DNA of 64,000 bases from an uncultured Coriobacteriales bacterium (lineage in GTDB: Bacteria > Actinomycetota > Coriobacteriia > Coriobacteriales > QAMH01). Under the pieces are notes generated by a model, which saw nothing but the letters and a program-made list of their open reading frames with translations, ran no database searches and had not been told where the DNA came from. The position numbers were made by a program, and so were the translations under genes. The stretch is from positions 12,860-76,859 of the forward strand of contig CAKUES010000005.1 of NCBI GenBank assembly GCA_934646835.1. Direction: 5' to 3'. Below, one piece after another: positions 9,348-25,642 of this stretch (the first letter of the stretch is position 1; each line of letters opens with the position of its first letter).

Positions 9348-9411
9348 GCAGCTGGCCCGGCCAGCGCCCGTGGCAACGAGCCCCCTGTCGGAGGCAAACC
9401 CCACGATGCGC

Positions 9412-10335: not shown

Positions 10336-10593
10336 AGTTGTCCCATCATAGCAAGCGCCCTGAAAACGCGGCACCCATGTTTTGACGATGGTGCGCCATA
10401 GTTAATCCCCATAGCCAAAACGCCAGCTAAAGGGCCCAATGCTGCAATAATAGGCGACGCAAAGACGCACACATCATCGCAAGAGTTGATGGCAGGAATC
10501 CCAGCCACGCGAGCAGCCCGACAACCGCACCGCGCGAGCCAGCAACGAACCCTCCCATCACCTTGTCCACCCATAAGAAAGGTCGCACCAACC

Positions 10594-11727
10594 GTGGAGT
10601 TCTCTACCGCCTGTATCCACCACACGCCGCGCTTTGACGAGCCCACCGGCTCTGTCACCACGCCGATCTACCTCACCTCGACCTTTGCCCACCTAGGCCT
10701 GAGCCGCTCGACCGGCTACGACTACACCCGCACGCAAAACCCGACGCGCCAGTCCGTCGAGGACACCGTGGCGCAGCTCGAGCAGGGCGCCGACGCGCTC
10801 GCCTTCTCTACAGGCATGGCCGCCATCAGCTGCCTGATGGAGCTGTTCTCCCCCGGCGACCACATCGTCACCTCCTTCGACCTCTACGGCGGCTCCATCC
10901 GCCTCTTCGACGCCATCTCGAAGAAAAACGGGCTGAGCTTCAGCTCCGTCGACACGAGCGACCTTGACGCCGTGGCAGCGGCGATCACACCGGCCACCAA
11001 GGCGATCCTCATCGAAAGCCCCACCAACCCCACCATGGTCGTGAGCGACATCCGCGCCGTGGCCGAGCTCGCACACGAGCACGACGCACTGCTCATCGCG
11101 GACAACACCTTCTTGAGCCCGTACTTCTGCCAGCCGATCACCCTCGGCGCCGACATCATCGTCCACAGCGGCAGCAAGTACCTGGGCGGTCACAACGACG
11201 TTCTCTCCGGTTTCCTCGTCGCCGCGACGCAGGAGACCGCCGACGCCTTGCGCTACATCCAAAACACCACCGGCGCGACGCTGACGCCCTTTGACGCATG
11301 GCTCGTCGAGCGCGGCATCAAGACCCTGCCGCTGCGCATGGAGAAGCACCAGCAAAACGCGCTTGCCATCGCCGCATGGCTGCAGGAGCATCCCAAGGTC
11401 GAGCGCGTGCTCTACCCCGGCTTGCCCGAGCACCTCGGCCACGAGCTCTCGCTCGCACAAGGCCGCGGCTTTGGCGGCACCCTCACCTTCTATGTCGACG
11501 ACGCGCAGACCGCCCGCCAGCTCCTCGAGGGCGTGAAGCTCATCAAGTTCGCAGAAAGCCTCGGCGGTGCGGAAAGCCTCGTCACCTACCCGCTCACCCA
11601 GACACACGCGGACCTCTCCCTCGAGGAGCGCGCCACCAAGGGCATCGACGACAAGATGATCCGCCTGTCCGTGGGCCTCGAGGATGCCGACGACCTCATC
11701 GCCGACCTCGCGCAGGCGCTGGCCTAG
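10594..11727 (+). CDS. Cys/Met-metabolism PLP enzyme (cystathionine gamma-synthase / beta-lyase family)
   Basis: TPIYLTSTF, ADNTFLSPY and SGSKYLGGHND (PLP-lysine motif). A GTG start at 10594 after GAAAGG is proposed; the ORF track starts at 10486. Confidence 0.85.
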   Translation: MEFSTACIHHTPRFDEPTGSVTTPIYLTSTFAHLGLSRSTGYDYTRTQNPTRQSVEDTVAQLEQGADALAFSTGMAAISCLMELFSPGDHIVTSFDLYGGSIRLFDAISKKNGLSFSSVDTSDLDAVAAAITPATKAILIESPTNPTMVVSDIRAVAELAHEHDALLIADNTFLSPYFCQPITLGADIIVHSGSKYLGGHNDVLSGFLVAATQETADALRYIQNTTGATLTPFDAWLVERGIKTLPLRMEKHQQNALAIAAWLQEHPKVERVLYPGLPEHLGHELSLAQGRGFGGTLTFYVDDAQTARQLLEGVKLIKFAESLGGAESLVTYPLTQTHADLSLEERATKGIDDKMIRLSVGLEDADDLIADLAQALA

Positions 11728-11738
11728 GTGATGTGGCG

Positions 11739-12920
11739 ATGACCAGCTACGACTTCGACCGCATCATCGACCGCACGGGTACCGGCTGCCTCAAGTACGA
11801 CTTCCACGCCGCACGCGGCAAAGCGCCCGACCTCACGCCGCTGTGGGTAGCAGACATGGACTTCGCGCTGCCCGCAGAGGCCCTCGACGCCCTCAAGCAG
11901 CGCGTCGACCACGGCATCTTTGGCTACACCCAGCCCCTGCAGCCCTACTACGACGCCGTGCTCGGCTGGATTGAGCAGCACCAGCACTGGACGCCGCAGC
12001 AAGAATGGCTCGTCACGACGCCGGGCGTGGTCTTCGCGCTCGCATGCGCCGTGCGCGCCTTCACGCAGCCCGGCGCCGCCGTGCTCATCCAGCAGCCCGT
12101 CTACTACCCCTTCAAAAACGTCATCGTCGACAACGGGCGCACGCTCGTGAACGCACCGCTCAGCTACGCGGACGGCGCCTACTCCATCGACTTTGCCGCC
12201 TTCGAGGAGGCCATCGTCGAAAGCGGCGCCAAGCTCTTCATACTCTGCAACCCGCACAACCCCGCGAGCCGCGTATGGACACGCGACGAGCTCTCCCAGA
12301 TCGCACGCATCTGCACCGCACACGACGTCATCGTCGTCTCCGACGAGATCCACGCGGACTTCATCTGGGGCGAGCGCGCATTTTGCTCCTACGGCTCTCT
12401 GGGCGAGGAGGCAGGCGATCAGTGGGTCGTCTGCACGGCGCCGAGCAAGTCCTTCAACATCGCCGGTCTGCAGATCTCCAACATCTTCATCCCCAACCCC
12501 GAGCTGCGCCGCCGCTTTCGCAGCGCACGCGGCGCCACCGGCTACGACGAACCCTCGACGCTGGGGCTTGCCGCCACGCAGGCCTGCTACACGCTCGGCC
12601 AGGAGTGGTTCGCGCAGGCGTGCGACTACATCTACGCCAACATCTGCTTCATGCGCGACTACCTGGCCGCACGTGCACCGCGGCTGCGCATGGTTGAGTG
12701 CCAGGGTACCTACCTCACCTGGGTCGACTGCACGGCGCTCGGCCTCGATGCCGGGGGCATCCGAGAGCTTGTCGAGGATAAGGCGCGCCTGTGGCTCGAT
12801 TTGGGCGACATGTTCGGACAAGACGGAGCGGGCTTCATCCGCTTCAACGTCGCCTGCCCAAGAAGCACCCTCGAGCGCGCCCTCGAGCAGCTCTGCGACG
12901 CCGTGAGCGAGGTGCGCTGA
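11739..12920 (+). CDS. PatB/MalY-type aminotransferase-fold cystathionine beta-lyase
   Basis: [24 protein letters not shown] and SKSFNIAGL (PLP lysine). ATG at 11739. The N-terminal extension of ORF 11298 is Arg/Pro-rich out-of-context sequence. Confidence 0.85.
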
Positions 12921-13846
12921 TGCCCATCAGAATCCCCGACTCCCTACCCGCGACCTCCGAGCTCGAAGCGGAGAACATCTTCGTCATGACGGAGTACCGC
13001 GCGATCCACCAGGACATCCGTCCGCTGCGCGTGCTGCTCCTCAACCTCATGCCGACCAAGATCGTCACGGAGACGCAGATCTTGCGCAAGCTCTCCAACA
13101 CCCCGCTGCAGGTGGAAGTCGAGCTCTTGCGCCCGATTACGCACGAGGCAAAGAACACGCCAGCCGCACATCTCGAGACCTTCTACCGCAGCTTCGAGGA
13201 GGTAAAGGACAGCCGCTACGACGGCATGATCATCACCGGCGCGCCCGTCGAGCTCTACGACTTCGAGGACGTGGACTACTGGGGTGAGCTCACCCAGATC
13301 ATGGACTGGGCCGACACCCACGTGCACAGCACGCTCCACATCTGCTGGGGTGCGCAGGCTGGCATCTACTACCACTACGGCATCGCCAAGCGCGTACTGC
13401 CCGGCAAGCTCACCGGCATCTTCTCGCACGAGGTCATCAAGCCATCCTCGCCGCTCGTGCGCGGCTTCGACGACGTGTTCGACGCACCGCACTCGCGCTA
13501 CACCGGCGTCGTCGAAAGCGACATCGCTGCACACCCCGAGCTCGAGGTGATCGCCGACTCCGCGGAGGCAGGTGCCTACATCGTCAAAAGCGTCGACTCC
13601 AAGAACTTCTTCGTCTTCGGGCACCCCGAGTACGACCGCGGCACGCTTGCTGCCGAGTACGCGCGCGACGTCGCCCGCGTGAAGGAGGGCACACTCGAGT
13701 TTGCACCCATGCCCGCCCACTACTTCCCCGACGACGACCCGACGCGAACGCCGCACTCCAGCTGGCGCAGCCACGCCCAGCTCCTCTACACCAACTGGCT
13801 CAACTACTACGTCTACCAGACGACCCCGTACAACCTATACGAATAG
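12920..13846 (+). CDS. metA: Homoserine O-acyltransferase (MetA family)
   Basis: [11 protein letters not shown]..., [16 protein letters not shown]. The start overlaps the upstream stop (TGATG). Confidence 0.9.
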
Positions 13847-13863
13847 CAAGCAAGAGGACGACC

Positions 13864-13899
13864 GCCTCGCAGCCCTGCAGGCCGGTCGTCCCACAAACG
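13864..13899 (+). terminator. Stem-loop after metA (no U-tract)
   Basis: GGACGACCG (13864-13872) pairs with CGGTCGTCC (13891-13899). Confidence 0.4.
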
Positions 13900-14067
13900 A
13901 GCTAAGCTGCCCCTCCAGCACCCACATCCCGTCGGAACATGCTTGCCGTATGCGAGATAAGCAGATCAGCCTCGTAACCGAATCGAAACCGCAGTGTTAT
14001 CCTGACGCGATACTTCTAAAGGGTGGGTTATCGCAACCTGCATGGATAAAGCACTGGAGGGAAAATC

Positions 14068-15441
14068 ATGGCAACTGAAAGCCGCGCGACATGGTCAGGC
14101 AAGCTGGCCTTCGTGCTCTCTGCTGCCGCGTCTGCAGTCGGCCTGGGAAGCATGTGGCGCTTCCCGTATCTCGCTGCAAAGTACGGCGGAGGCGCGTTCC
14201 TGTTCGTCTACCTCGTTTTCGTGTTCACGATCGGCATCTCGCTGCTGCTGCTCGAAAATGCACTCGGTCGTAAGACCAAGCAGTCTGCAATCGGCGCCTT
14301 CAAGTCCTTTGGCAAGAAGTTTGCCTTCATCGGCATCTTCACGTCCTGCGTGCCGTTCATCATCGTGCCGTACTACTGCGTCATCGGCGGCTGGACGACC
14401 AAGTACATGTTCTCGTACTTCACCCAAAGCCCGGCTGCAATGGCAGACGGCGGCGCCTTCTTCACCAGCTTCATCACCGATCCCGTGGGCTCCACCATCT
14501 TCCTGTTGATCTTTGCCGCAGCGACTTGCGCCATCGTCGGCCTCGGCGTCAACAAGGGCATCGAGCGCGCCAACCTCATCATGATGCCCGCGCTCATCAT
14601 CGTCTCTGCAGCGCTGGCCATCTACGTGCTCACCATGCCCGGCGCAATCGACGGCCTGGCTTACTACCTGATCCCGGACCCGTCCAAGTTCTCCCCTGAG
14701 ATGATCATCTCCGCTTTGGGCCAGACCTTCTACACGCTCTCGCTCGCCATGGGCATCATGATCACCTACGGCTCCTACCTCGACAAGAAGGAGAAGCTGA
14801 CCAGCAGCGTCACGCAGATCGCCGGCACCACCTTTGGCGTCTCCCTGCTCGCTGGCATGATGATCATCCCGTCCTCCTTCGCGGCCCTCGGCAGCGGCGA
14901 GGCCGTGGCCGAGAACGCCGGCCCCTCCCTGATGTACATCGTCTTGCCCGAGGTCTTCAACTCCATGGGTTCCATCGGCGGCATCCTGGGCGGCATCTTC
15001 TTCATCCTGGTTATCTTCGCAGCGCTGACCAGCTCCATCTCTCTAGTCGAGACCTGCGTCTCCATCATCTCCGACGGCGCTAACATGACCCGCAAGAAGG
15101 CCCTGGCCATCGTCACCGCGTTCCTCCTCGTCGCAGCCTTCATCGTCAACATGGGCTACAGCGGCCTGAGCTTCATCCAGCCGCTTGGCGAGGGCAGCTC
15201 CATCCTGGACTTCCTGGACTTCATCTCCAACTCCGTGATGATGCCCATCGCAGCGATCATGACCTGCATCTTCGTCGGTTGGGTCATCAAGCCCAAGACC
15301 ATCATCGACGAGGTCCGCGAGAGCTCCAAGTTCAGGGCTGCAGGCGCATGGACCGCGATGATCAAGTACATCGCACCTGTCTGCATCGTCTTGATCCTCA
15401 TCACCTACGTCGCCCAGACATTCGGTCTTGTGAGCCTGTAG
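14068..15441 (+). CDS. Neurotransmitter:sodium symporter (NSS/SNF) family amino-acid transporter
   Basis: GLGSMWRFPYL signature and about 11-12 hydrophobic segments. Confidence 0.9.
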   Translation: MATESRATWSGKLAFVLSAAASAVGLGSMWRFPYLAAKYGGGAFLFVYLVFVFTIGISLLLLENALGRKTKQSAIGAFKSFGKKFAFIGIFTSCVPFIIVPYYCVIGGWTTKYMFSYFTQSPAAMADGGAFFTSFITDPVGSTIFLLIFAAATCAIVGLGVNKGIERANLIMMPALIIVSAALAIYVLTMPGAIDGLAYYLIPDPSKFSPEMIISALGQTFYTLSLAMGIMITYGSYLDKKEKLTSSVTQIAGTTFGVSLLAGMMIIPSSFAALGSGEAVAENAGPSLMYIVLPEVFNSMGSIGGILGGIFFILVIFAALTSSISLVETCVSIISDGANMTRKKALAIVTAFLLVAAFIVNMGYSGLSFIQPLGEGSSILDFLDFISNSVMMPIAAIMTCIFVGWVIKPKTIIDEVRESSKFRAAGAWTAMIKYIAPVCIVLILITYVAQTFGLVSL

Positions 15442-15467
15442 GCGACAAGCTGACACATAGCACGCAA

Positions 15468-15504
15468 AGAGCCGCTGCCCACTTTGGGCGGCGGCTCTTT
15501 TGTT
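15468..15504 (+). terminator. Intrinsic terminator after the NSS transporter
   Basis: AGAGCCGCTGCCC-ACTTT-GGGCGGCGGCTCT followed by TTTGTT. Confidence 0.75.
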
Positions 15505-15526
15505 GCCTGCAATGAGCTGTGCTGCC

Positions 15527-15644
15527 TTAAGGAGATGCTGACCAACGCAAGGTTTATGGGGAGGGACAGGGTCCCTCCCCTACGTAGGCGGCGATTTCCG
15601 CCTTGGGCATCTGCTCGACGCGAAGAGATAGTCCCTCCCCTACG
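15527..15644 (+). repeat. Degenerate MITE/REP-A composite with a duplicated right arm
   Basis: The left half resembles the 118-bp MITE (..GATGCTGACCAACGCAAGGTTTATGGGGAGGGACAGGGTCCCTCCCCTACG). GTCCCTCCCCTACGTAGGCGG is repeated at 15571 and 15631. Confidence 0.7.
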
Positions 15645-15775
15645 TAGGCGGTGTTTTCCTAAGTTCACGGAATTGCCAAGTGTGGTTGATTTCGCGCGCG
15701 ACCAGGCGCCGTTCAGCCGCACTTAGCGCACCCGCGCCTCAGCTCGCGCCCAGCAGCCCACGCTCTTCAACAAAA

Positions 15776-15805
15776 AGCGAGCCCCTGGTTTCCCAGAGGC
15801 TCGCT
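15776..15805 (-). terminator. Stem-loop with U-tract downstream of the polyferredoxin gene
   Basis: AGCGAGCC pairs with GGCTCGCT. The minus strand reads ...GGCTCGCTTTTTG. Confidence 0.6.
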
Positions 15806-15849
15806 TTGTCCGCTTGTTCACGCCATCCGTGCGGGCGAGCGACTCTACC

Positions 15850-17010
15850 CTACAGGCCGAACTTGCGCTGGTTCTTCTGCTTCTCGTTCTCGAAGAGGAC
15901 TACGAGCATGTCCGGGTCGAGGTAGTTTGCCGGGATGCGGTTGCCGATGACGATGGCCTTCCTAAAGCAGGAGTCTGCGCACAAACCGCACGCCATGCAC
16001 ATATCCGGCTGGAAGGCGAGCGTGCCGGGCGCCTCCTTGCGCTGGACGCGGGTGGGGTTTTCCGGCAGGTCCTGCACATAGAGCAGCGCGTGCGTGGCGC
16101 ACATGCTCGCGCAGCAGCCGCAGCAGATGCACTTGGTGTTGTCGATGTCGAGCGTCACCCAGAAGCGCGACTCGATGCTCGCGCCCTCCGGCAGCTCTCC
16201 CACGCGGTCGAGCATCTTCTTGATGCGCGGACCGCGGTAGGTGTCGGCGGGAAACACGTCCTCCGGTTTGACGACGACCTGCTTGTCGGAGTTGTCGACG
16301 TGCTTCTTCTGGCCGGTGACGGCCTCGTCGATGCTGTCCATGATGTAGCCCATGGCGCTTCCACCGGCATGCGCCAGCGCCTCGCGACGGTCGCTTTTGG
16401 CATGGCGCAGCTTGCCGCCGCAGTTGCAGATGTTGTCCGGGATGTTGCGGAAGATCTTGACCTTGCCGTCAGTGCCCCAAGTCTTCATCAGGTTGCGCGC
16501 GCTCTTAACCACAACAGGGAAGAACGGCTCGTCGCAGTCGACCTCGCAGCCCTCGCAGCTGGGACACAGCAGCGCCACGCGGTTGATACCGGTGGCGAGC
16601 AAGCCGCAGATGAGGTACTCGTCAAGGTAGTTGAGGCAGGGCAGGACCGTGACGCGGCCCTCGTCGATGTCGAGCGCGTCGGCATGACGGCGGCAGGTGA
16701 AGGCCGCGATGCCGCCGTAGTTGGCAGCCGTCGCCTTTGCCGCACGCACGATGTCGGTCTGGTTGGGCGCACTCGTGAGCATGGCGCTCGTCGGGCACGC
16801 TGCCGCACAGGCACCACAGTTGGTGCACAGCTCGGAGTCGATCTTGATCCTGCCGATCTTGCGCGAGATAGCCTCATGATGGCATGCGTTCATGCATGCC
16901 TTGCAGCTGCTGTTCCAGTTGCGGATATAGCTGCAGCGCTTGGGCAGGATGGTGATAGTGGCGGCGGTGACCTCTTGGGCCAGCGCCTCGATTTCGTCTA
17001 GTTTACTCAT
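15850..17010 (-). CDS. Polyferredoxin-like multi-[4Fe-4S] protein
   Basis: Several CxxCxxCxxxC(P) motifs (CTNCGACAAACP, CICCGCCASMC, CMACGLCADSC) plus CKACMNAC and CPSCEGCEVDC. Start moved to MSKLDEIE (17010). Confidence 0.8.
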   Translation of the reverse strand: MSKLDEIEALAQEVTAATITILPKRCSYIRNWNSSCKACMNACHHEAISRKIGRIKIDSELCTNCGACAAACPTSAMLTSAPNQTDIVRAAKATAANYGGIAAFTCRRHADALDIDEGRVTVLPCLNYLDEYLICGLLATGINRVALLCPSCEGCEVDCDEPFFPVVVKSARNLMKTWGTDGKVKIFRNIPDNICNCGGKLRHAKSDRREALAHAGGSAMGYIMDSIDEAVTGQKKHVDNSDKQVVVKPEDVFPADTYRGPRIKKMLDRVGELPEGASIESRFWVTLDIDNTKCICCGCCASMCATHALLYVQDLPENPTRVQRKEAPGTLAFQPDMCMACGLCADSCFRKAIVIGNRIPANYLDPDMLVVLFENEKQKNQRKFGL

Positions 17011-17082
17011 GGGTGACAGTATAGAACAGGGACGGCGCCCGCATGGGCGCCGTCCCTGCAAAGGGCGTCAATGTTGCGCTGG

Positions 17083-18057
17083 TTACTTGGCAAGAATCTC
17101 CGCAACGCGGGCCACGGTCTCCTTGCGGGCCTTGCCACGCACGTCGATGAGCTCGGCGATGATGGAGATGGCGATCTCCGCAGGGGTCTTGTCGGCGATC
17201 TTCACACCGATGGGAGCACTCAGGTTCTCCCAATCCTCCGCCGTACAACCGCGGGCTTCGGCGTTGGCCATGACGTCGGCGTTCTTGTGGGGGTTGCCCA
17301 TCATGCCCTTGTAGAAGGCGGGGCTCTTCACCGCATGGATGAGGGCGTCCATGTCATGGACGTGACCGCGGGTGACCACACAGCAGTAGTCATCCTTGGT
17401 GATCTCGAGCTTGTCTGCCAGATCGCTCCAATCCGCGTTAACGAAGATACGCTCGGACAGCGGGAAGCGCTCCTCGGTGAGGAAGGCGGCATCGTCGTCG
17501 AGCACGACGGTGTCGAATCCGCAGTCATGGCAGTAGCGCTCCATGAAGACGCTGACCTCGCCTGCGCCGTAGATGACGACGCGCTGCGTGGTAAACAGGG
17601 GGACGCTGCACCAGGTCACGCCGGCAAACTGGTCGACGTGCATGGAGGGGCCGCGCGTGCAGTCGAGCATCTGCTTGCGGTCGCGCTTGTTGTACGGGCG
17701 GCTGGCGACGATGTCCTTGCTCTCGTTTGCAAAGAACAGCGTGGACTTGTCGTCCTCGCTCGGGCCCATGTCGAAGCTCTGGTTGTCCGGGCGCATGCAG
17801 GCCTCGGCGTCGTAGACGATCTTGAAGCCGATCCAGGCCTGGTCGTTGAGGCGCAGCGAGACGATCGCGCGCTCGAGCGCGGGGATGTCATCCTCCGTCA
17901 GACCCTCGAGGATCTGAGCAAGGTGCTCAGGACGAATGATCGGCGAGTTCTCAAGCGCGGCTGCAGAGAAGCAGGGCACGAGCTCAGGGTCGACCTTGGG
18001 GGTCTCGCCGGCCTTGATGGCGTCGATGATGGACTGGATAGTGCTCTCGGTGATCAT
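17083..18057 (-). CDS. XdhC/CoxI-family (molybdenum cofactor insertion chaperone-like) protein
   Basis: The C-terminal Rossmann part (VVIYGAGEVS..., VVTRGHVHD, IGVKIADKTPAEIAISI) resembles the XdhC Rossmann domain. The N-terminal half is not recognisable by eye. Confidence 0.7.
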   Translation of the reverse strand: MITESTIQSIIDAIKAGETPKVDPELVPCFSAAALENSPIIRPEHLAQILEGLTEDDIPALERAIVSLRLNDQAWIGFKIVYDAEACMRPDNQSFDMGPSEDDKSTLFFANESKDIVASRPYNKRDRKQMLDCTRGPSMHVDQFAGVTWCSVPLFTTQRVVIYGAGEVSVFMERYCHDCGFDTVVLDDDAAFLTEERFPLSERIFVNADWSDLADKLEITKDDYCCVVTRGHVHDMDALIHAVKSPAFYKGMMGNPHKNADVMANAEARGCTAEDWENLSAPIGVKIADKTPAEIAISIIAELIDVRGKARKETVARVAEILAK

Positions 18058-18256
18058 ATGATCCCCCTTCGCGTTTAGGGCACATGCCAACGGACCGCTT
18101 GCGTGGGCTGCATTGCGTTAGGCGGCAAGACAGCACGGCACGCTGCAGCATCTACCCGATGTACAGACGACTCGAAGTATACGCCCCTGACAAGGATAAA
18201 TCCCGCAGAGAATAGAGTTTGTAAGATTGAATGCGAGCAGATAGCTCAAACTCGCT

Positions 18257-18355
18257 GTGCAATGTGTGCCAGTGACAAAGCGACCACGCCTTGAAGAGCC
18301 GATGACACCGGAACCCTTCATGGCGTGGTCGCTTTGTCACTGGCACACATTGCAC
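18257..18355. repeat. Foldback element family D, long form
   Basis: GTGCAATGTGTGCCAGTGACAAAGCGACCACGCC (18257-18290) is the perfect reverse complement of 18322-18355. Confidence 0.85.
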
Positions 18356-18697
18356 ACATTGCACTCCGGTGTACTTTATCTTGCTTGTGAATAATCCGCT
18401 CACGCGCGGCAAGCGGAAACCTCCTTGAATCGTGCGCCGCGCTCCGTATACTGCATAGCCGAGAGACGACCACTGTGGTCATTCTGCTATCTCTCGCGGC
18501 TCCGCAAGCCGGGGCAATTCTTCTGCAAAGGGTGCTGGTCACCCTCTCATATCGAGCCCACCGGCCCCTTCTGCAACGGGTTTGGGCATTACTGCACAAT
18601 GCCATACCGCTCACTCACATCAACTGCCTGCGCTTTGGTGCAGTCTCGCGCTGGCCTTCGCTCGCCCAGACGGCGACGCGAAAGAAAGGAATTTGCA

Positions 18698-19201
18698 ATG
18701 AAGAAGGTTCTCGTTATGGCTGCTGCTGCAGCACTGTGCGCTGGCATGCTCTCCGGTTGCGGTGCTTCCGGTGACAACAACAGCTCCAGCTCCAACGGTG
18801 GCTCCACCCCCGCAGCCGAGCAGACCAACGACGTCGCAATGGCATACAAGACCGTCGACGAGCTGAAGGCCGACCTCGGCAACGAGGATGTCGTCGTTGT
18901 CGACGTCCGCAAGGCAGACGACTTCGCCGCAGGCCACATCAAGGGCGCCGTCTCCGCTGACATGGACGCAGCCAAGGAAGGCGACGCAGCTGCAGGCGAG
19001 GCAGCCATGAAGGCAGCCCTCAAGGAGGCCACTGGCGACGAGAAGGGCGCTGGCAAGGAGCTCGTCTTGGTCTGCTACAGTGGCAAGTCCTACGCACAGG
19101 CTGGCACCAACGCCCTCAACGCCATCGGCGCTGACATGACCAAGGTCAAGACCCTCGAGGGCGGCATGCAGGCTTGGGGCTCCGACGACCTCGAGAAGTA
19201 A
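18698..19201 (+). CDS. Rhodanese-domain lipoprotein (predicted extracytoplasmic)
   Basis: MKKVLVMAAAAALCAGMLSGC is a signal peptide plus lipobox. The rhodanese active-site loop CYSGKS lies in VLVCYSGKSYAQAG. ATG at 18698 follows GAAAGGAA. Confidence 0.8.
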   Translation: MKKVLVMAAAAALCAGMLSGCGASGDNNSSSSNGGSTPAAEQTNDVAMAYKTVDELKADLGNEDVVVVDVRKADDFAAGHIKGAVSADMDAAKEGDAAAGEAAMKAALKEATGDEKGAGKELVLVCYSGKSYAQAGTNALNAIGADMTKVKTLEGGMQAWGSDDLEK

Positions 19202-19216
19202 TCGAGAGTATATTCG

Positions 19217-19972
19217 ATGACTAACCCCGAGAAGAAATCGGGCTGGGCAGGGCGCATCGCCGTAGTGGCATGCGCCCTTGCGCTGCTTGCGAGCTACTTC
19301 CTCGTCCCCGCCGTCCACGGCTGGGTTGACGAGGTCGTGAGGATGTTCGCCACAGGCGACTTCACCGTCGTTAAGGACTTCGTCGCCTCCTACGGCGTCT
19401 GGGCCGCGGCTGTCTCCTTCGCGCTCATGATCTTCCAAAGCGTCGCAGCCCCGCTGCCCGCCTTCCTCATCACCTTTGCCAACGCCAACCTCTTTGGCTG
19501 GTGGCAAGGCGCGTTGCTCTCCTGGACCAGCGCCATGGCCGGTGCAGCCGTCTGCTTCTGGATCGCGCGCCTGCTCGGTCGCGATGTTGTGGAAAAGCTC
19601 ATCACCAAAAGCGGCTTGGCAAGCGTGGAAGGCTACTTCGAGCGCCACGGCAACCTGACCATCCTCATCTGCCGCCTGCTGCCCTTTGTCTCCTTTGACT
19701 TCGTCAGCTATGCGGCAGGCCTCACCAGCATGTCCTTCGGCGGCTTCATGCTCGCAACGGGCATCGGCCAGCTGCCGGCGACCATCGTCTACTCCTACGT
19801 GGGCGGCATGCTCACCGGAGGCGCGAAGACCCTCGTGATGGCGCTGTTCATCCTGTTCGCCCTTGCAGGTGTCATCGTCTTGGCGCGCCAGCTCTGCACC
19901 GAGCGCGCCAAGAAGAAGCTCGCAGCACAAGAACAGCCCGCCAAGCTTAAGACCGACAACGCGGAGAGCTAG
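19217..19972 (+). CDS. TVP38/TMEM64 (DedA-superfamily, SNARE_assoc) membrane protein 1
   Basis: Multi-pass membrane protein with the motif RLLPFVSFDFVSYAAGLT, typical of TVP38 proteins. Starts 15 nt after the rhodanese gene. Confidence 0.8.
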   Translation: MTNPEKKSGWAGRIAVVACALALLASYFLVPAVHGWVDEVVRMFATGDFTVVKDFVASYGVWAAAVSFALMIFQSVAAPLPAFLITFANANLFGWWQGALLSWTSAMAGAAVCFWIARLLGRDVVEKLITKSGLASVEGYFERHGNLTILICRLLPFVSFDFVSYAAGLTSMSFGGFMLATGIGQLPATIVYSYVGGMLTGGAKTLVMALFILFALAGVIVLARQLCTERAKKKLAAQEQPAKLKTDNAES

Positions 19973-19978
19973 ACGCCG

Positions 19979-20692
19979 TTGACCAAGAACCCCAACAAGC
20001 AGCCCGGTTCCGCCGGCTTCAAGGCTATCGCGTTTTGCGCGGTAGTCTTGTTGCTGCTTGCCGTCAACGCGCTCCTCGGCCTGACAGATCGCCTCGATAC
20101 CTCGACGCTTGCCGCGCAGCTCAGCTCGCTGGTTGACGAGAACCTGGCACTGGCGCTTGCCGTCTACCTCGTCGCCGTGGTGATCGGCAGCACAGCACTC
20201 GCCTTACCCGGCGTACTCTTTGCCGTCGTCGCCGGCGCGTGCTTTGGCCCCGTGCTCGGCACCGCCGCCTGCGTTGTCGCCTCCTGCACCGGGGCAGTGG
20301 CGGCCTTTATCACCGGACGCTACTTCCTGCGCGACTGGGTCAAGCCGCGCGTTGAGCAAAACGCCTTGCTCGCCAAGTGGCTCTTTGGCAGCCAGGTCAA
20401 CGCAGTCACCTTGCTCGCCATCACAAGACTCGTCCCCATCTTCCCCTTCAACCTGCAAAACTTCGCCTATGGGATCACGGACATCAAGCTGAGCGTCTAC
20501 ACGATCTGCACGGCGGTCTTCATCGTCCCCGGCTGTGCCCTCTACGTCACCGCAACCGCCGGCATCGTCGACCCAACGCAGCGCATCACGTGCTTTGCCT
20601 GCGGCGCCGCATTGCTCGCCGTCACGCTTATGGCCAGCGCGTTTTTGCGCAAACGCTACCTTGGAAAGGAGGATGAACATGCTCTCTCTTAG
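19979..20692 (+). CDS. TVP38/TMEM64 (DedA-superfamily) membrane protein 2
   Basis: RLVPIFPFNLQNFAYGIT motif. TTG start 6 nt after the previous stop. Confidence 0.75.
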   Translation: MTKNPNKQPGSAGFKAIAFCAVVLLLLAVNALLGLTDRLDTSTLAAQLSSLVDENLALALAVYLVAVVIGSTALALPGVLFAVVAGACFGPVLGTAACVVASCTGAVAAFITGRYFLRDWVKPRVEQNALLAKWLFGSQVNAVTLLAITRLVPIFPFNLQNFAYGITDIKLSVYTICTAVFIVPGCALYVTATAGIVDPTQRITCFACGAALLAVTLMASAFLRKRYLGKEDEHALS

Positions 20693-21497
20693 CTCGCTCA
20701 GCGGATACCAGCAGCCACAGGAACACCGCCCCGGTCGCCTCTCCCTGCTTGGCATCGCCTTGGAAAAAGGACACTACCCCTTCAAGAACTACCGCCACGC
20801 AAAGGCGCAAAGCGTCCTTTTCCCAGGGTGCAACTTCCCTTCCCTCTACCCCAAGACTTGCGCCGCGCTCGTCGAGCTACTTGCCGAGCATAACGTCGGC
20901 GTTGCCTACGACTGCTGCGGCAAACCGCTGCGCATGATGCAGCGAGAGGATGACTTCCAGCGCATCTGCAAGCACATCGACGAGCGCCTTGCGCGCCTTG
21001 GCTGCACGGAGATCGTCTGCGTGTGTCCCAACTGCCTCTACGCCCTGCGCAGCAACGTCTCGCAAAGCGTCGTCAGCGTATACGCCAAGCTCAAGGAGCT
21101 GGGTATCGAACCTTGCGCTGACAGCACTGATGGCAGCGGCGATGCCGTCTACTTCCCGCCCTGCCCCGACAGGCGCGTGGGCGCCATCGCCCGCGACATC
21201 GAGGCTTTCCTGCCTGCAGGCACGCGCACGTTGCCCTGCGCCGGCCAGCTTGCCAGCTGTCGCAACGGGGACGAGTGCGGAGGTTGCAAGGCACTCCCCT
21301 GCTGCCGCCAAGACTGCAGCCATGTGCTGGACAGGAAGGACTCTATCCTCACCGCCTGCGCCTCCTGCAGCGGCTACCTCGCTGCAAAGGGCTACGACAA
21401 GGTCGACCTCGCGCTCACCCGCGCCCTCGGCATCGACGAGAAGCACGGCGAGTCCGGCATCCCCTTCATCAACCGCGCGAGAACGAAGCTCCTATGA
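20673..21497 (+). CDS. HdrB/GlcF-like cysteine-rich (CCG) domain protein
   Basis: FPGC...(27)...CCGKP...(35)...CPNC fits the CCG pattern CXnCCX35CXXC. A second degenerate copy follows (PPC...PCC...CASC). The start is ATG 20673 or 20679, directly after GGAAAGGAGG, and overlaps the TVP38-2 gene. Confidence 0.7.
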   Translation: MNMLSLSSLSGYQQPQEHRPGRLSLLGIALEKGHYPFKNYRHAKAQSVLFPGCNFPSLYPKTCAALVELLAEHNVGVAYDCCGKPLRMMQREDDFQRICKHIDERLARLGCTEIVCVCPNCLYALRSNVSQSVVSVYAKLKELGIEPCADSTDGSGDAVYFPPCPDRRVGAIARDIEAFLPAGTRTLPCAGQLASCRNGDECGGCKALPCCRQDCSHVLDRKDSILTACASCSGYLAAKGYDKVDLALTRALGIDEKHGESGIPFINRARTKLL

Positions 21498-22888
21498 GAC
21501 GCGCGGTAGTACTCTTCACCCGCGCACTGGCCAAAGACTGCGGCAAGTCGCGCATGGGGCACGCGCTCTCCTGCGAGCAGCGCGCTGCACTCCAGCACGC
21601 TTTCATCAGCGACCTCGCTGCAAGCATCATGAAAGCACAGTCTCAACGAGATGACATCACCATCATCCCCTGCAGTACCACCGAGGACATCCCCGCAGAA
21701 CTTGAGGCAGCCTTTGCCGGAAGCAACCACCGCTACTTGCAGCAGCGCGGGGACAGCTTTCGTGAGCGCATCGTCAACGTCTTCGCAGACGTGCTCGCAC
21801 AGGGCTTCGACTCCTGCGTGATGCTCGGCTCCGACTGCGTCGAGGCATCCGCACAAGATATCCTCGATGCCTTCGACATCCTCGAAGAGTGCCCGACGGT
21901 CTTTGGCCCTTCCGATGACGGCGGCTTCTACCTCGCAGGCCTGAGCGCTGCGCACCCAGAGCTTTTCGACATCGACGGCTACGGGACCTGCCTGGCGCTG
22001 CGCAACGTCGTGCAGCACGCAGGCGAGCTTGGGCTCGGCTGCGCTATGCTGCGCCCCTGCAGCGACATGGACACCCTCTTCGACCTGCAGCGCCTCTATG
22101 CGCGCGCCCAGCACGCAGGCGAGCATGGAGACGTCAGCACCCACATCCCCAGCGCTACTGTGGCGCTGCTGCGCGAGCTTGCCGAGCATGGCGCGCCCGT
22201 TGACGAGCATTCTATCTCCGTCATCGTCCCCCTCTACAACGAGGCCGATGTCGCGAACAAGCTTGCCAACCAGCTGCGCGAGCTCGCGCTCTTCGCAGAG
22301 ATCGTGCTCGTCGACGGCGGCAGCACCGATGGCACCGTCGAGTACTTCGAGCGCGAGTTCTGCATCGTGCGCTCGTCCAAGGGGCGCGGCCGCCAGCTCA
22401 ACGCCGGAGCCGCCGCCGCACACGGCGAGGTTCTCTTCTTCCTGCACGCAGACAGCGAGCTGCCGGAATACCCCCTCGAGCAGATTCGCGAGGTGCTCGC
22501 CAAATACCGTGCCGGTTGCTTTGGGATCCGATTCCCCCGCTCCACTATCGCCATGCGCTGCTGCCAGGCGCTGTCGAACTTCCGCGCGAGCCGGCGCAAG
22601 ATCATGTTCGGCGACCAGGGCATCTTCATCGAACGCGCACTGTTCGAGGAGCTGGGCGGATTTCGCGAGATTGCCCTCATGGAGGACTACCAGCTCTCGC
22701 TCGACTTGCAGCAACGGCGCATCCCCTTCGGCATGTGCCGCGAGCGCATCCTCACCTCCGACAGGCGCTACCGAGGCGACATCATCCGCCAGCTCGTCGT
22801 CATGAGGAAGATGGCCGTGCTGCGCAAGCGCTACCGAGGCAGCGAGGACCCCGAACAACTCGCCCGCGACTACCGCGACATCCGATAA
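21494..22888 (+). CDS. Fused DUF2064 (TIGR04282-like) / family-2 glycosyltransferase (TIGR04283-like) protein
   Basis: N-terminal half: VVLFTRALAKDCGKSRM...SCVMLGSDC...FGPSDDGGFYLAGL (DUF2064/CofC-like). C-terminal half: ISVIVPLYNE...VLVDGGSTDGT...GRGRQLNAGA...FLHADS...FGDQGIF...LMEDYQLS (GT2). The ATGA overlap with the upstream stop suggests translational coupling. Confidence 0.8.
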   Translation: MRRAVVLFTRALAKDCGKSRMGHALSCEQRAALQHAFISDLAASIMKAQSQRDDITIIPCSTTEDIPAELEAAFAGSNHRYLQQRGDSFRERIVNVFADVLAQGFDSCVMLGSDCVEASAQDILDAFDILEECPTVFGPSDDGGFYLAGLSAAHPELFDIDGYGTCLALRNVVQHAGELGLGCAMLRPCSDMDTLFDLQRLYARAQHAGEHGDVSTHIPSATVALLRELAEHGAPVDEHSISVIVPLYNEADVANKLANQLRELALFAEIVLVDGGSTDGTVEYFEREFCIVRSSKGRGRQLNAGAAAAHGEVLFFLHADSELPEYPLEQIREVLAKYRAGCFGIRFPRSTIAMRCCQALSNFRASRRKIMFGDQGIFIERALFEELGGFREIALMEDYQLSLDLQQRRIPFGMCRERILTSDRRYRGDIIRQLVVMRKMAVLRKRYRGSEDPEQLARDYRDIR

Positions 22889-22955: not shown

Positions 22956-22959
22956 CCCA

Positions 22960-22986
22960 CGTAGGGGAGGGACCCTGTCCCTTCCC
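22960..22986 (+). repeat. REP-like hairpin, class A (CGTA head on the plus strand)
   Basis: CGTAGGGGAGGGACCCTGTCCCTTCCC. Confidence 0.8.
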
Positions 22987-23050
22987 ATAGGCCTCTCATC
23001 AATCAGCGCCTCCCTGGCACCGAATCGCCACCCATCCCCACCACATGAAA

Positions 23051-23094
23051 AGAGGGGGCTGACCCTAGACAGGTCAGCCCCCTCTTTGTCGTTT
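23051..23094. terminator. Bidirectional intrinsic terminator
   Basis: AAAAGAGGGGGCTGACC-CTAGACA-GGTCAGCCCCCTCTTTGTCGTTT, with an A-tract on one side and a T-tract on the other. Sits between convergent genes. Confidence 0.8.
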
Positions 23095-23108: not shown

Positions 23109-25034
23109 TTAAGCCTGGGTTTCCTCGCCCTGAGCGGCTTCGCCCTCAGCAGACGCGCCTGCCTCGGCGGAGGCGTCGGCACCAGACTGCTGGGAAGTCG
23201 TGGAAGCGAACTCACCCTTGGAGTTCGCGATGGCCGTGACTTCGCGAACCGTGCCATTCTCGTTGTAGCGGAGCTTGATCTTGTCGCCTGCCTCGATGAA
23301 GGGCAGGTTCTCGCTCACGGTGATAGCTGCGACGTAGATGCTCTTGTCGCCCTTGAGCTTGAAGTAGTAGTAGCTGTTGCCGTCCTTGACAACGCTCTCG
23401 AGCGCCTCGATGATGCCGGAGGTCTCAGCTGCGGACGCGTTCGCAATCTCGTTAGGATCGACGTCGATGTCCTTGTCGCTGCCCAAGGCGGTCACGTAAT
23501 TGGCCTGAGCCTGCTCGACGGTAGTGCCGGTACCGACGATCTGGTACTGCTGGACGTCGATGAAGGCGTACATCTTGACCAGGCCCGCGCTGTCCTTGAG
23601 GGACAGGAAGTAAGTCGGGCGGTTGGCGATATTGAGCAGCAGCGGGCTTGTCGCCTCGTACTTCATCTGCTGGACCTGGCCCTCTGCAGAGCGCATCGCG
23701 GAGGTCTCCGTCGCACCCGCGCAGGTGTAATAGCGCGTGTCCTTGGTGCGTAGGTTGGTGAGCACGAAGCCAACCAGGGACTCGTCGGTGTTGGCAGACG
23801 TCATGCCGGTGTACATGTAGACGTCGTCGTCGATGGCGAGGTAGTTGTAGCCGCTCGTGGAGCTAGTGGAGTCACCAACGGTGGAGCCGTCACCGCTGTT
23901 GGCGAAGAGGCTCGGTGCAGCAGAGCCGGTGGGGACGAGCACGCCAGACTGGCCAATCAGGCTGTTCCAGAAGCCGCTGCGGTACTTGCCGTAGGAGCCG
24001 AGCTGCTCGTAGACGAGATCGGCGGAGAAGACCTTGTCGCACCACTGCGGGATGCTGTCGAGGTCGTAGAACTGAGACTCGCCAGTCACGGCGTTGACAA
24101 GGACGGCGCCGTCATAGTCCTTACCGCCAAAGAGCATGATGCGGTACTTGACCGTGGGGACGATCCAGTAGGGGTTGCCGTCGTCGTCGATCTCGAAGGC
24201 GGCGTCGCCGAGGATCTTGGTCGGGAACTGGAAGCGCACATGGCGGTACAGGTAGTTGTTGAAGTGCTCGGCCGTGGAGTAGTGCATGTACTGGCCCTCG
24301 GGCAGGCGGACGAGCTTGGTCTCCTGGGTGGCCATGTTGACGGAGACATAGCCGGGCAGACCGTTGCGGGTGTTGGTGATCCACTTGATGATGTCAGCGT
24401 AGACCAGAGAGCTCACGCGGTAGGGAGCCTCCTTGTAGCTGATCTGGGTGTAGGCGTTGTAGGACTCGTCGACAGCGTACTGGGAGACGAGGTCGCTCAT
24501 CTCGCCGATGGTGCGGCTGCCCAGGCGCACTGCCGTGGAGCGGTCGACGACGGGAACGCTGTCCATGGAGATCTCTGCGATGTCCTTGGAGAACTCACCG
24601 TCCTCGACGTCGAGCAGAGCAGAATAGCTCTTCGCGTTGAAGAACGGGCAGGAGATGACGTTGCCGACGACGAGCACGACAGCACACACGACGACGATGC
24701 CGCCGGCCACGAAGGCAGAACGGGCGCCGTGGCCCTTCTTCTTGCCGGCCTTCTTCTCTGCCTTGGCTGCGGCGCGCTCCTCCTTGGACTTGAAGAGCTT
24801 GCCGGACTTGAGGCGCTCGCCAAAGCTGTCGATGTGGTCCTGCAGGTCCATGAGCAGGGAGGTCACGCCGTCGCTTGCGCGCGGAATGGCAAAGAGCACC
24901 GTCACGATGATCGTGCAGTAGATTACGAACCACCAAAACGCCGTGCTCTGGACGTTGATGGCAGGGATCATCACGTAATAGAGAATCGCGATGATCACAA
25001 TGGAGAGAATTGCGGGTATACCGAACTTCTTCAT
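23109..25034 (-). CDS. Membrane-anchored protein of unknown function (three N-terminal TM segments, Lys-rich linker, large extracytoplasmic domain)
   Basis: Long ORF with coherent composition, three hydrophobic helices and a Ser/Ala/Glu-rich tail. No family recognised by eye. Confidence 0.7.
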   Translation of the reverse strand: MKKFGIPAILSIVIIAILYYVMIPAINVQSTAFWWFVIYCTIIVTVLFAIPRASDGVTSLLMDLQDHIDSFGERLKSGKLFKSKEERAAAKAEKKAGKKKGHGARSAFVAGGIVVVCAVVLVVGNVISCPFFNAKSYSALLDVEDGEFSKDIAEISMDSVPVVDRSTAVRLGSRTIGEMSDLVSQYAVDESYNAYTQISYKEAPYRVSSLVYADIIKWITNTRNGLPGYVSVNMATQETKLVRLPEGQYMHYSTAEHFNNYLYRHVRFQFPTKILGDAAFEIDDDGNPYWIVPTVKYRIMLFGGKDYDGAVLVNAVTGESQFYDLDSIPQWCDKVFSADLVYEQLGSYGKYRSGFWNSLIGQSGVLVPTGSAAPSLFANSGDGSTVGDSTSSTSGYNYLAIDDDVYMYTGMTSANTDESLVGFVLTNLRTKDTRYYTCAGATETSAMRSAEGQVQQMKYEATSPLLLNIANRPTYFLSLKDSAGLVKMYAFIDVQQYQIVGTGTTVEQAQANYVTALGSDKDIDVDPNEIANASAAETSGIIEALESVVKDGNSYYYFKLKGDKSIYVAAITVSENLPFIEAGDKIKLRYNENGTVREVTAIANSKGEFASTTSQQSGADASAEAGASAEGEAAQGEETQA

Positions 25035-25069: not shown

Positions 25070-25642
25070 CTATACGAACATATCGACGTAGTGCGCGATG
25101 ATCGCGGCGGAAGTGGGAGTGCAGAGCTCTCCGTCGAGCTTGTCCTCCACAACCGGGATCTGGTACTCGTCGAGAATCGCCTTAGTGGCGGGAGCGGGAA
25201 TGTCGAGGGTGCCGTGAGAGCACTCGACGGTGCCGCTACCCGTCTGGACAGCCGTTGCGGTGATCTTGTCCGGCGACAAGAACTCGATGGCCGTGCAGAT
25301 ACCCAAGATCTCGCGGACCGTGAGGCCCTTGCCGACCTCGTGGAAGTGAGTCTCCTCCACCGGGCAGCCGTGAACCTGGGCCTCGGCCTTTGCGAGAATG
25401 TTGTAGATGGCCTTGGCATGGGCCTTGGCGTAGTCGCCTGCAACGGTGATGTCGATGGCGCGCTCGACATCTGCGAGGTCATGCAGGTGCTGCTCTGCGC
25501 GGATAGAGTTGTCCCCTACCACGACGCCGACCTTGGCACGGGTGACATCGTCTGCCAGCAGGGGGATCAAAGTGCCAAAGATCGCCTTGCGCGTGGCAGC
25601 CTGGGTGAAATCAAAGTGGACGTCAGCCACAGCTTGCTCCAA
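25070..25642 (-). CDS. LarC/DUF111-like domain fragment (possible gene remnant)
   Basis: AKAEAQVHGCPVEETHFHEVG...LDIPAPATKAIL...GELCTPTSAAII aligns by eye with the central part of the LarC N-terminal domain. The N-terminal SGISGDM-type motif and the whole C-terminal domain are absent. The TTG start lacks an RBS, and a TGA lies immediately upstream. Confidence 0.5.
   Translation of the reverse strand: MEQAVADVHFDFTQAATRKAIFGTLIPLLADDVTRAKVGVVVGDNSIRAEQHLHDLADVERAIDITVAGDYAKAHAKAIYNILAKAEAQVHGCPVEETHFHEVGKGLTVREILGICTAIEFLSPDKITATAVQTGSGTVECSHGTLDIPAPATKAILDEYQIPVVEDKLDGELCTPTSAAIIAHYVDMFV

Follow-up and report, generated by a model that had tools for sequence, protein, structure and literature searches.

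In Escherichia coli K-12, the genes b1750–b1758 are arranged as ydjX-ydjY-ydjZ-ynjA (AhpD-like)-ynjBCD, followed by ynjE, which encodes a rhodanese, and by ynjF, which encodes a CDP-alcohol phosphatidyltransferase; it has been reported that FNR directly activates ydjXYZ-ynjABCD and ynjE (PMC3688515). YdjY is a lipoprotein with a conserved TGCxxCLDSC motif. In our literature search no paper was found that gives a function to the whole ydjXYZ/ynj cluster or to the transferases described below, and beyond that the search returned only FNR regulation, the annotation of YnjE as a molybdopterin-synthase sulfurtransferase and surveys of the DedA family. The second group of described relatives are the clusters around the radical-SAM enzyme ArsS, as in Desulfitobacterium hafniense DCB-2, or with ArsM in Synechocystis. 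The accepted first steps of arsenosugar synthesis, established in a cyanobacterium, are those of ArsM and ArsS, and experimental support concerns these two proteins only (Xue et al. 2019, cited in PMC8552651). No paper characterising the transferases, VTT proteins, reductase or rhodaneses of the ArsS clusters was found in the same search. Here we describe an operon of five genes, G1–G5, at positions 18698–22888 (plus strand) of a 64,000-nt stretch of contig CAKUES010000005.1, from an uncultured Coriobacteriales bacterium; this whole stretch is called the window in the following, and the names carried by proteins nearly identical to its own place the organism in the Eggerthellales/Coriobacteriia. 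As judged from homology and gene order, the operon is an ArsS-less, CCG-type reduced variant of a widespread and biochemically almost unexplored gene set, and not a categorically new pathway. Its genes, and the two halves of the last one, are:

18698–19201, plus strand: G1, single-domain rhodanese lipoprotein of 167 aa
19217–19972, plus strand: G2, A-type VTT/TVP38 membrane protein of 251 aa
19979–20692, plus strand: G3, B-type VTT/TVP38 membrane protein of 237 aa, with a TTG start
20679–21497, plus strand: G4, HdrB-like CCG iron-sulfur protein of 272 aa
21494–22888, plus strand: G5, fusion of DUF2064 and a family 2 glycosyltransferase (GT2), DUF2064::GT2, of 464 aa
21494–22138, plus strand: N-terminal half of G5, DUF2064 (PF09837, fold match)
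22205–22888, plus strand: C-terminal half of G5, GT-A glycosyltransferase (TIGR04283)

An earlier note, made by reading this DNA without database searches, had proposed five coupled same-strand genes forming one unit, and had assigned them to the rhodanese, TVP38, HdrB-like CCG, DUF2064 and GT2 families. The coordinates and junctions were found as claimed: G1 and G2 are separated by 15 nt and G2 and G3 by 6 nt, G3 and G4 overlap by 14 nt (20 nt with the alternative G4 start at 20673, which is less likely; GGAGG lies 6 nt ahead of the ATG at 20679), and G4 and G5 share an ATGA overlap. Moreover, products of the same 167, 251, 237, 272 and 464 aa were called independently on a public metagenomic contig with identical sequence (L176), and the third-position GC of the five open reading frames (ORFs) is high, as in the other genes of the window. 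One coupled transcription unit is plausible, and the only strong terminator-like hairpin is found after G5. The family assignments were all recovered by hidden Markov model (HMM) searches, with PF00581 for G1, PF09335 for both G2 and G3, PF02754 for G4, and DUF2064 plus Glycos_transf_2 for G5.

The two membrane proteins connect the operon to E. coli. G2 matches VTT_dom (PF09335) with 95.5 bits and G3 with 65 bits, and in the tree of all VTT domains each locus contributes one protein to either of two deeply separated clades, where G2 belongs to clade A and G3 to clade B; the two are anciently diverged TVP38 proteins. When compared to the E. coli proteins, G2 is 55.6% identical to YdjZ over the full length (234 aa, E = 1e-87) and G3 is 29% identical to YdjX (E = 2e-26). 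On these alignments G2 is a YdjZ orthologue and G3 is YdjX-type, and this ties the operon to E. coli ydjXYZ-ynjABCD/ynjE/ynjF, a link that, together with the two VTT types, the earlier note had missed. G2 is the most conserved component of the operon: about 95 of its positions are conserved at 85% or more across 18 loci, its identity is 89–92% among Coriobacteriia-type lineages, and it is about 70% identical to the Firmicutes homologues, compared with only about 40% for G4 and G5. More than 7,900 YdjZ-type homologues were found. Clade B holds VTT::CCG and CCG::VTT fusions (L012, L029, L064 and L074) and is sister to VTT proteins fused or adjacent to a reductase dependent on flavin adenine dinucleotide (FAD; L066, L087), in agreement with the proposal that an HdrB-like protein takes here the place of the FAD disulfide reductase. 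A bare adjacent VTT-B/VTT-A pair was also observed in a recurrent gut organism (L124, L141–L143, L146, L147, L150, L152, L157 and L160–L163), on contigs, among them one of 20 kb (L142), that carry no other gene of the system; the two proteins may work as a unit by themselves.

The window and the E. coli cluster share the adjacent YdjZ-type and YdjX-type VTT proteins, an exported rhodanese as partner and an anaerobic setting, since the E. coli genes are activated by FNR. On the other hand, no YdjY, AhpD-like YnjA, YnjBCD importer or YnjF transferase is encoded in the window, G1 has a single domain and is not an orthologue of YnjE, and the CCG protein and the DUF2064::GT2 fusion are present where E. 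coli has YnjF. Relatives of the operon provide further points of contact: their large rhodanese (Rhod360; in L003, L089 and L007) is 36–39% identical to YnjE, their substrate-binding protein (SBP) and ATPase are each about 36% identical to YnjB and YnjD, respectively, and YnjB-like SBPs are present in many of the Firmicutes relatives.

G1 has a signal peptide and a lipobox (LSGC, residues 18–21, nt 18749–18760), and its rhodanese domain (PF00581, 65 bits, E = 8e-18) carries a GlpE-like six-residue catalytic loop, C126-YSGKS (CYSGKS, nt 19073–19090), which is kept in the orthologues. The latter, recognised by the signature VAMQY...CYSGK(S/K)YAQ, come from Coriobacteriia and Oscillospiraceae, and G1 is 49.6% identical to the N-terminal rhodanese of a Rhodanese::YdjY fusion in locus L092. 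The domain is predicted to lie outside the membrane, as the earlier note had suggested, and lipoboxes were found on nearly all the rhodaneses of the homologous Gram-positive loci.

G4 matches the CCG family (PF02754) with 28.6 bits (cut-off 20.6). Of the two CCG-type modules that had been claimed for it, the first is canonical (C51-X27-C79C80-X35-C116-X2-C119, that is, CX27CCX35CXXC); the second, C162...C187...C227-X2-C230, reads 'CAG' for the 'CCG' of the family, and the claim is to be corrected in this part. The invariant cysteines are C51, C79, C80, C116, C119, C162, C187, C227 and C230, while a Cys-rich insert (C194, C200, C203, C208, C209, C213), present in the Coriobacteriia subgroup only, could supply the fifth ligand of the second module. 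At the level of the AlphaFold2 model (predicted local distance difference test, pLDDT, 82.9), an HdrB-like two-lobed CCG fold is confirmed by the Foldseek matches to EtfD, LutA and HdrB (probability 1.0, TM 0.46–0.55). G4 has in common with the HdrB/HdrD-type CCG proteins (heterodisulfide reductase, LutA, GlpC, EtfD) the fold and the first motif and, with HdrD/HdrE and EtfD, the coupling to the membrane. It differs from them in the degenerate second motif and the lineage-specific insert, in having a TVP38 protein instead of cytochrome b as membrane partner, and in the lack of a ferredoxin domain, which most homologues carry at the N-terminus and the Coriobacteriia subgroup does not.

G5 had been described as a fusion of TIGR04282 and TIGR04283. 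The second part of this description stands, as the C-terminal half scores 212 bits against TIGR04283 (cut-off 182) and 64.6 bits against Glycos_transf_2; the N-terminal half, with 117.9 bits, is under the curated TIGR04282 cut-off of 134, and matches DUF2064 (PF09837, 70.3 bits, cut-off 25.8) and, weakly, TIGR03552. The same half matches the DUF2064 structure 3cgx of the Protein Data Bank both by sequence (E = 1e-15) and by fold (TMt 0.82; pLDDT of the G5 model 87.5), and FbiD/CofC (7p97, 6bwh) with TMt 0.72–0.77. The best fold matches of the C-terminal half are soluble GT-A enzymes, and its invariant motifs are DGGSTDG (274), HADS (318), MEDYQ (396) and SDRRY (422). G5 is therefore modelled as a CofC/FbiD-like nucleotidyl (guanylyl) transferase fold joined to a GT-A glycosyltransferase. 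The likeness to CofC/FbiD of F420 biosynthesis and to 3cgx is one of fold (TMt 0.72–0.82); unlike these, the half is fused to a GT-A domain, and F420 genes are absent nearby.

The larger gene set was surveyed by clustering and HMM-labelling the ORFs of 88 loci, and then those of a further 80, which a YdjZ-type query had retrieved, for the most part in assemblies of the human gut. For the census, loci with an A-type VTT were counted if 12 kb or longer; these 66 loci are not independent, several coming from the same species. A B-type VTT was found in 61/66, a CCG protein in 56/66 and DUF2064+GT2 in 52/66. In the 52 loci with both the A-type VTT and DUF2064+GT2, the CCG protein was never missing (52/52), the kinase was present in 39 and ArsS in 22, being missing in the remaining 30. 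In this sample the association of the CCG protein with the transferases is absolute, and ArsS is facultative at the locus.

In D. hafniense DCB-2 the order is Rhod166-VTT-VTT-CCG (Dhaf_3863)-CMD/AhpD-rSAM/DUF3641 (ArsS)-GT2-DUF2064, with the transferases unfused. Since the same Rhod-VTT-VTT-CCG block adjoins ArsS in this organism and in 22 of the 52 loci, the window holds a reduced derivative of the ArsS-type cluster and no orphan pathway, and the absence of a radical-SAM gene, to which the earlier note had given weight, does not make the operon a separate one. Neither is the transferase fusion, to which the same significance had been given, a distinguishing trait: it is common, with more than 800 homologues, many of which adjoin ArsS. 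The window resembles the ArsS clusters in the order of the first four genes, as in D. hafniense, in the pair of TIGR04282-like and TIGR04283 transferases (fused in G5), and in having a VTT protein and a disulfide reductase as regular partners. It differs in the lack of ArsS, AhpD-like protein, ArsM, kinase and PNP/nucleosidase, in a reductase of CCG type and not of FAD type, and in a fusion order of the transferases opposite to the gene order of D. hafniense.

Fuller forms of the set were observed in gut Lachnospiraceae and related Firmicutes, where up to about 15 genes are found together, including two to four rhodanese lipoproteins, a YnjBCD-like ABC importer (its SBP scores 474 bits against PRK11622), a nucleoside hydrolase, an A-type VTT, an AhpD-like protein, a B-type VTT, a Fer4-CCG protein, DUF2064::GT2, an APH-fold kinase, a GCAxxG protein and ArsS. 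In L012, ArsS scores 412 bits against TIGR04167 and the AhpD-like protein 194.6 bits against TIGR04169; ArsS is also present in the homologous loci L088, L091 and others. The composition differs in the ArsS loci of 'classical' type, found in Bacteroidota, Proteobacteria and other groups: here ArsS is accompanied by an AhpD-like protein, ArsM, PNP, a fatty-acid hydroxylase, DUF547 and a disulfide reductase dependent on FAD. Some of these loci also have a VTT protein, which is never of the A type. We also considered whether ArsS plus AhpD (de novo) and ABC importer plus nucleoside hydrolase (salvage) are mutually exclusive alternatives; this had held in the first 20 loci and was rejected, as L100 and L103 have both.

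A neighbour-joining tree of the GT2 domains separates the VTT-A/CCG group from the 'classical' ArsS loci. Inside the former, the Coriobacteriia loci form a single clade, all of them without ArsS and kinase, while ArsS-positive loci occupy both deep (L135, L088) and derived positions, so that the absence of ArsS is a derived and recurrent state. The same five-gene order was found in nine Coriobacteriia-type loci (L001–L005, L021, L022, L089, L090), three of which are short contigs (L021, L022, L090), the others having in several cases flanks of up to 10 kb per side. Counted by lineage, the order is shared by six or more others of Coriobacteriia type, with a G5 identity of 45–81% (81% in L001/L002, about 56% in L003–L005 and L089, and 47% in L090), and the arrangement is far beyond chance; conservation outside the strain was the test that the earlier note had set for itself, and the gene order passed it. 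No ArsS, AhpD-like protein or kinase was found in the nine loci, within the flanks available on the contigs. The clade keeps only the five-gene core, extended downstream in some members (L003–L005 and L089) by a YnjE-like rhodanese lipoprotein with two domains and by a membrane protein of four helices and about 140 aa.

Gene fusions connect the components further. In L128 a genuine DUF2064::Fer4-CCG fusion is directly followed by GT2 and, together with the VTT-B::CCG and DUF2064::GT2 fusions, it links VTT-B, CCG, DUF2064 and GT2 in a chain. The Rhodanese::YdjY fusion mentioned above belongs to L092 (JGI 3300042601, a Christensenellaceae metagenome-assembled genome; positions 9001–17954), which encodes a VTT-A, the G1-type rhodanese::YdjY protein, a VTT-B, TusA plus DsrE, a PF11823 Se_S_carrier protein, a YnjBCD-like importer, a YnjF-like CDP-alcohol phosphatidyltransferase and a CCG protein, DUF2064 and GT2 being absent. 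This locus bridges the E. coli and the transferase-type clusters, and nowhere else in the gene set is sulfur/selenium trafficking hinted at so clearly.

By homology and synteny, the operon encodes the conserved core of the gene set, made of an envelope module, a cytoplasmic CCG protein and the bifunctional G5. The explanation that we favour, tentatively and with somewhat less than even confidence, is that this core handles a chalcogen or a metalloid. The rhodanese cysteine of G1 (elsewhere also YdjY) would capture, on the outer side of the membrane, a thiophilic species such as sulfane sulfur, selenium or an arsenical, and the YdjZ/YdjX-type pair, possibly as a heteromer, would pass this species, or a carrier-bound form of it, inward. 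The CCG protein (elsewhere the FAD reductase), docked on the YdjX-type subunit, would then reduce a (seleno)disulfide or an oxidised species. The DUF2064 half of G5 would activate with a nucleotide a small phosphorylated compound, for which a pentose-1-phosphate is the most plausible candidate, and the GT-A half would transfer the activated moiety to an acceptor, giving a glycoside conjugate. Where the cluster is complete, a 5-modified pentose-1-phosphate would be supplied by ArsS, by a nucleosidase or PNP and by the APH-type kinase, which is consistent with the first steps assigned to ArsM and ArsS. Since none of these supply genes is present in the window, the Coriobacteriia core would have to rely on genes elsewhere in the genome, on a precursor from the environment, or on a different, ArsS-independent substrate.

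Several observations weigh against this explanation. HMMs built from the loci found no ArsS, ArsM, AhpD-like protein (TIGR04169), kinase, nucleosidase or YnjB-type importer in the window, and G5 is thus left without an obvious dedicated supply of substrate. In G4, the second module is degenerate and the ferredoxin domain is absent, and L001/L002 have lost most of G3 through an internal deletion of about 480 bp. A DsbD-like thiol relay through the membrane was considered as well and is not indicated, because each VTT clade has only one well-conserved cysteine, and DedA-family proteins are best supported as transporters of lipids, not of ions or chalcogens. Finally, the ratio of nonsynonymous to synonymous substitutions (dN/dS) between the window and L001 is 0.17–0.39 for G1, G2, G4 and G5 (0.39 being that of G4), higher than the 0.02–0.11 of the flanking genes. 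By these values the operon is under purifying but relaxed selection, and part of the system may be dispensable.

A broader form of the favoured explanation, which we consider unlikely, is that the YdjZ/YdjX-type pair with an exported rhodanese or YdjY constitutes a general envelope system for the uptake or hand-over of sulfur, selenium or arsenic (S/Se/As), conserved from E. coli to gut anaerobes. In this case the Coriobacteriia core would couple the pair directly, with no radical-SAM step, to a guanylyltransferase::glycosyltransferase, and the product could be an undescribed sulfur or selenium glycoside, or a diet-derived organoarsenical that is re-glycosylated.

Among the alternatives, the one that survives best, with a low probability in our estimate, is that of an ordinary ArsS-type pathway merely split, with ArsS, the AhpD-like protein, the kinase and possibly ArsM located elsewhere in the same genome. 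The TIGR04283 score of G5, the identical block that adjoins ArsS in D. hafniense and in the 22 comparable loci, and the derived, recurrent absence of ArsS in the GT2 tree are all in line with it. A similar distribution was in fact observed in Extibacter muris DSM 28560, which has two partial copies of the system, L013 and L026: one combines an intact DUF2064::GT2 with the kinase and lacks ArsS, and in the other the genes for ArsS and the AhpD-like protein are accompanied only by fragments of those for GT2 and kinase. However, neither the window nor the available flank of any Coriobacteriia-type locus contains ArsS, the AhpD-like protein or the kinase; the loss of ArsS is old, because the Coriobacteriia loci form one clade, yet the five genes are intact, and 18 low-GC loci are without ArsS as well.

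The operon could also serve an envelope glycoconjugate, in which G5 makes a nucleotide-sugar and loads it on polyprenyl phosphate or on another lipid and the TVP38 pair flips the product or recycles the carrier, G1 and G4 being accessory; this, the main proposal of the earlier note, appears quite unlikely. Mycobacteria offer a precedent, a GT2 enzyme that loads 5-methylthio-xylose on decaprenyl phosphate. The GT2 half of G5 is weakly similar to the polyprenyl-phosphate glucosyltransferase GtrB (sll0501), and in E. coli and L092 a CDP-alcohol phosphatidyltransferase stands where the transferases would be, which hints at a product with a lipid head group. Moreover, UptA and DedA, of the DedA family, transport undecaprenyl phosphate (preprint 10.1101/2022.02.03.479048). 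Against this, in the B. subtilis assay of the same work high-level undecaprenyl-phosphate transport came from DedA only, of the eight E. coli paralogues, and YqjA and YabI, weakly, were the only others noted; the paralogues were each tested singly and not as a pair. The UptA models gave 37.4 and 22.1 bits for G2 (cut-offs 250 and 300) and no match for G3, which leaves the lipid-carrier flippase proposed in the earlier note without support, and G5 is devoid of transmembrane segments and resembles by fold, more than anything else, soluble GT-A enzymes. Furthermore, the obligatory CCG/FAD disulfide reductase, the several exported rhodaneses and the AhpD-like and GCAxxG proteins would remain unexplained.

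That the five genes are a decaying remnant, heading to pseudogenisation with no coherent function after the loss of ArsS and its partners, is very unlikely: G3 is already deleted in L001/L002, dN/dS is 2–15 times that of the flanking genes and G4 has lost the ferredoxin domain and the canonical second CCG motif, but dN/dS is well under 1, the five ORFs are intact and coupled here and in L003–L005, L089 and L090 despite a G5 identity of 47–58%, and G2 keeps its high identity both among the lineages (89–92%) and to Firmicutes (70%).

Two putative expression signals were found around the operon:

18425–18452, plus strand: promoter-like site TTGAAT-16-TATACT, about 245 nt upstream of G1 (consensus scan)
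23049–23087, no strand assigned: 16-bp GC-rich hairpin between G5 and a convergent gene for a 641-aa protein (terminator scan)

The first is a candidate operon promoter on weak evidence, the consensus scan having returned 2 sites against 0.6 expected; the second, the only strong hairpin 3' of G5, is likely a bidirectional terminator closing the operon. A riboswitch or leader was searched for in the 600 nt upstream of G1 and rejected, as nothing was found at Rfam gathering scores, the matches at E ≤ 1 were only miRNA-shaped and fell on a long hairpin, and the identity to L001 in this region (0.45–0.89) is not above that of the coding flanks. The hairpin corresponds to a near-perfect inverted repeat of 41 nt at 18256–18356 (98% complementary, 19-nt loop), matched, by its shape, by miRNA-precursor models only and poorly kept in L001.

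Upstream, two genes are divergent from the operon, one for a polyferredoxin of about 390 aa (15850–17061, minus strand) and one of the XdhC_C family (17083–18090, minus strand), whose position is kept in L001–L005 and L089. The closest model of the latter, below the cut-off, is an XdhC-related aldehyde-oxidoreductase maturation factor; with a dN/dS of 0.02 the gene is very strongly constrained, and about 90 nt at its 5' side (18091–18190) are kept across three lineages. A functional tie of the operon to the two genes was rejected, as they are syntenic in close relatives only and absent from L090 and from all Firmicutes loci. Downstream, the convergent gene (23109–25034, minus strand) is kept in all close relatives; the 641-aa protein that it encodes has a membrane segment at the N-terminus and matches no Pfam or NCBIfam family. 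At 25070–25642 (minus strand) lies a Ni_insertion (LarC-family) ORF of about 186–190 aa, which covers positions 61–203 of the 375-position profile; as the relatives keep the same short length, this is probably a split or truncated LarC and not a fresh pseudogene.

A palindrome resembling repetitive extragenic palindromic (REP) sequences, GGGAGGGAC(AGG/CCT)GTCCCTCCCC, occurs at 12 intergenic sites of the window (2097, 5167, 15559, 22965, 41455, 41555, 42689, 42796, 45326, 45431, 49784 and 58780) against 0.16 expected, several of them paired about 100 nt apart. A 58-nt inverted repeat (15531–15588 / 22956–23013) brackets the block formed by the Fer4 gene, the XdhC gene and the operon. A mobile element bounded by this repeat was considered and rejected; because its core palindrome is found at all the 12 sites, the repeat is a dispersed REP-like one and not the end of an element.

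The gene set to which the operon belongs is abundant, comprises about 15 genes in its full form, and most of the 80 metagenome loci come from human-gut assemblies. What is new here are the YdjZ/YdjX homology, the absolute coupling of CCG protein and transferases, the chain of fusions from VTT-B through CCG and DUF2064 to GT2, and the frequent absence of ArsS from the loci. The only functional label available, 'arsenosugar biosynthesis', rests on two other genes, those of ArsM and ArsS, in a cyanobacterium, and it is called into question since over half of the loci, and the whole gut Coriobacteriia clade, keep the core without ArsS. The homology to ydjXYZ-ynjABCD/ynjE/ynjF of E. coli offers a genetically tractable entry to an FNR-controlled cluster of y-genes that has long been unassigned, and the gene set could open up the way in which gut anaerobes handle sulfur, selenium or dietary arsenic. 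If the reading as a general S/Se/As envelope system were true, the 'arsenosugar' label would be too narrow and the ydjXYZ-ynj cluster of E. coli would gain a function.

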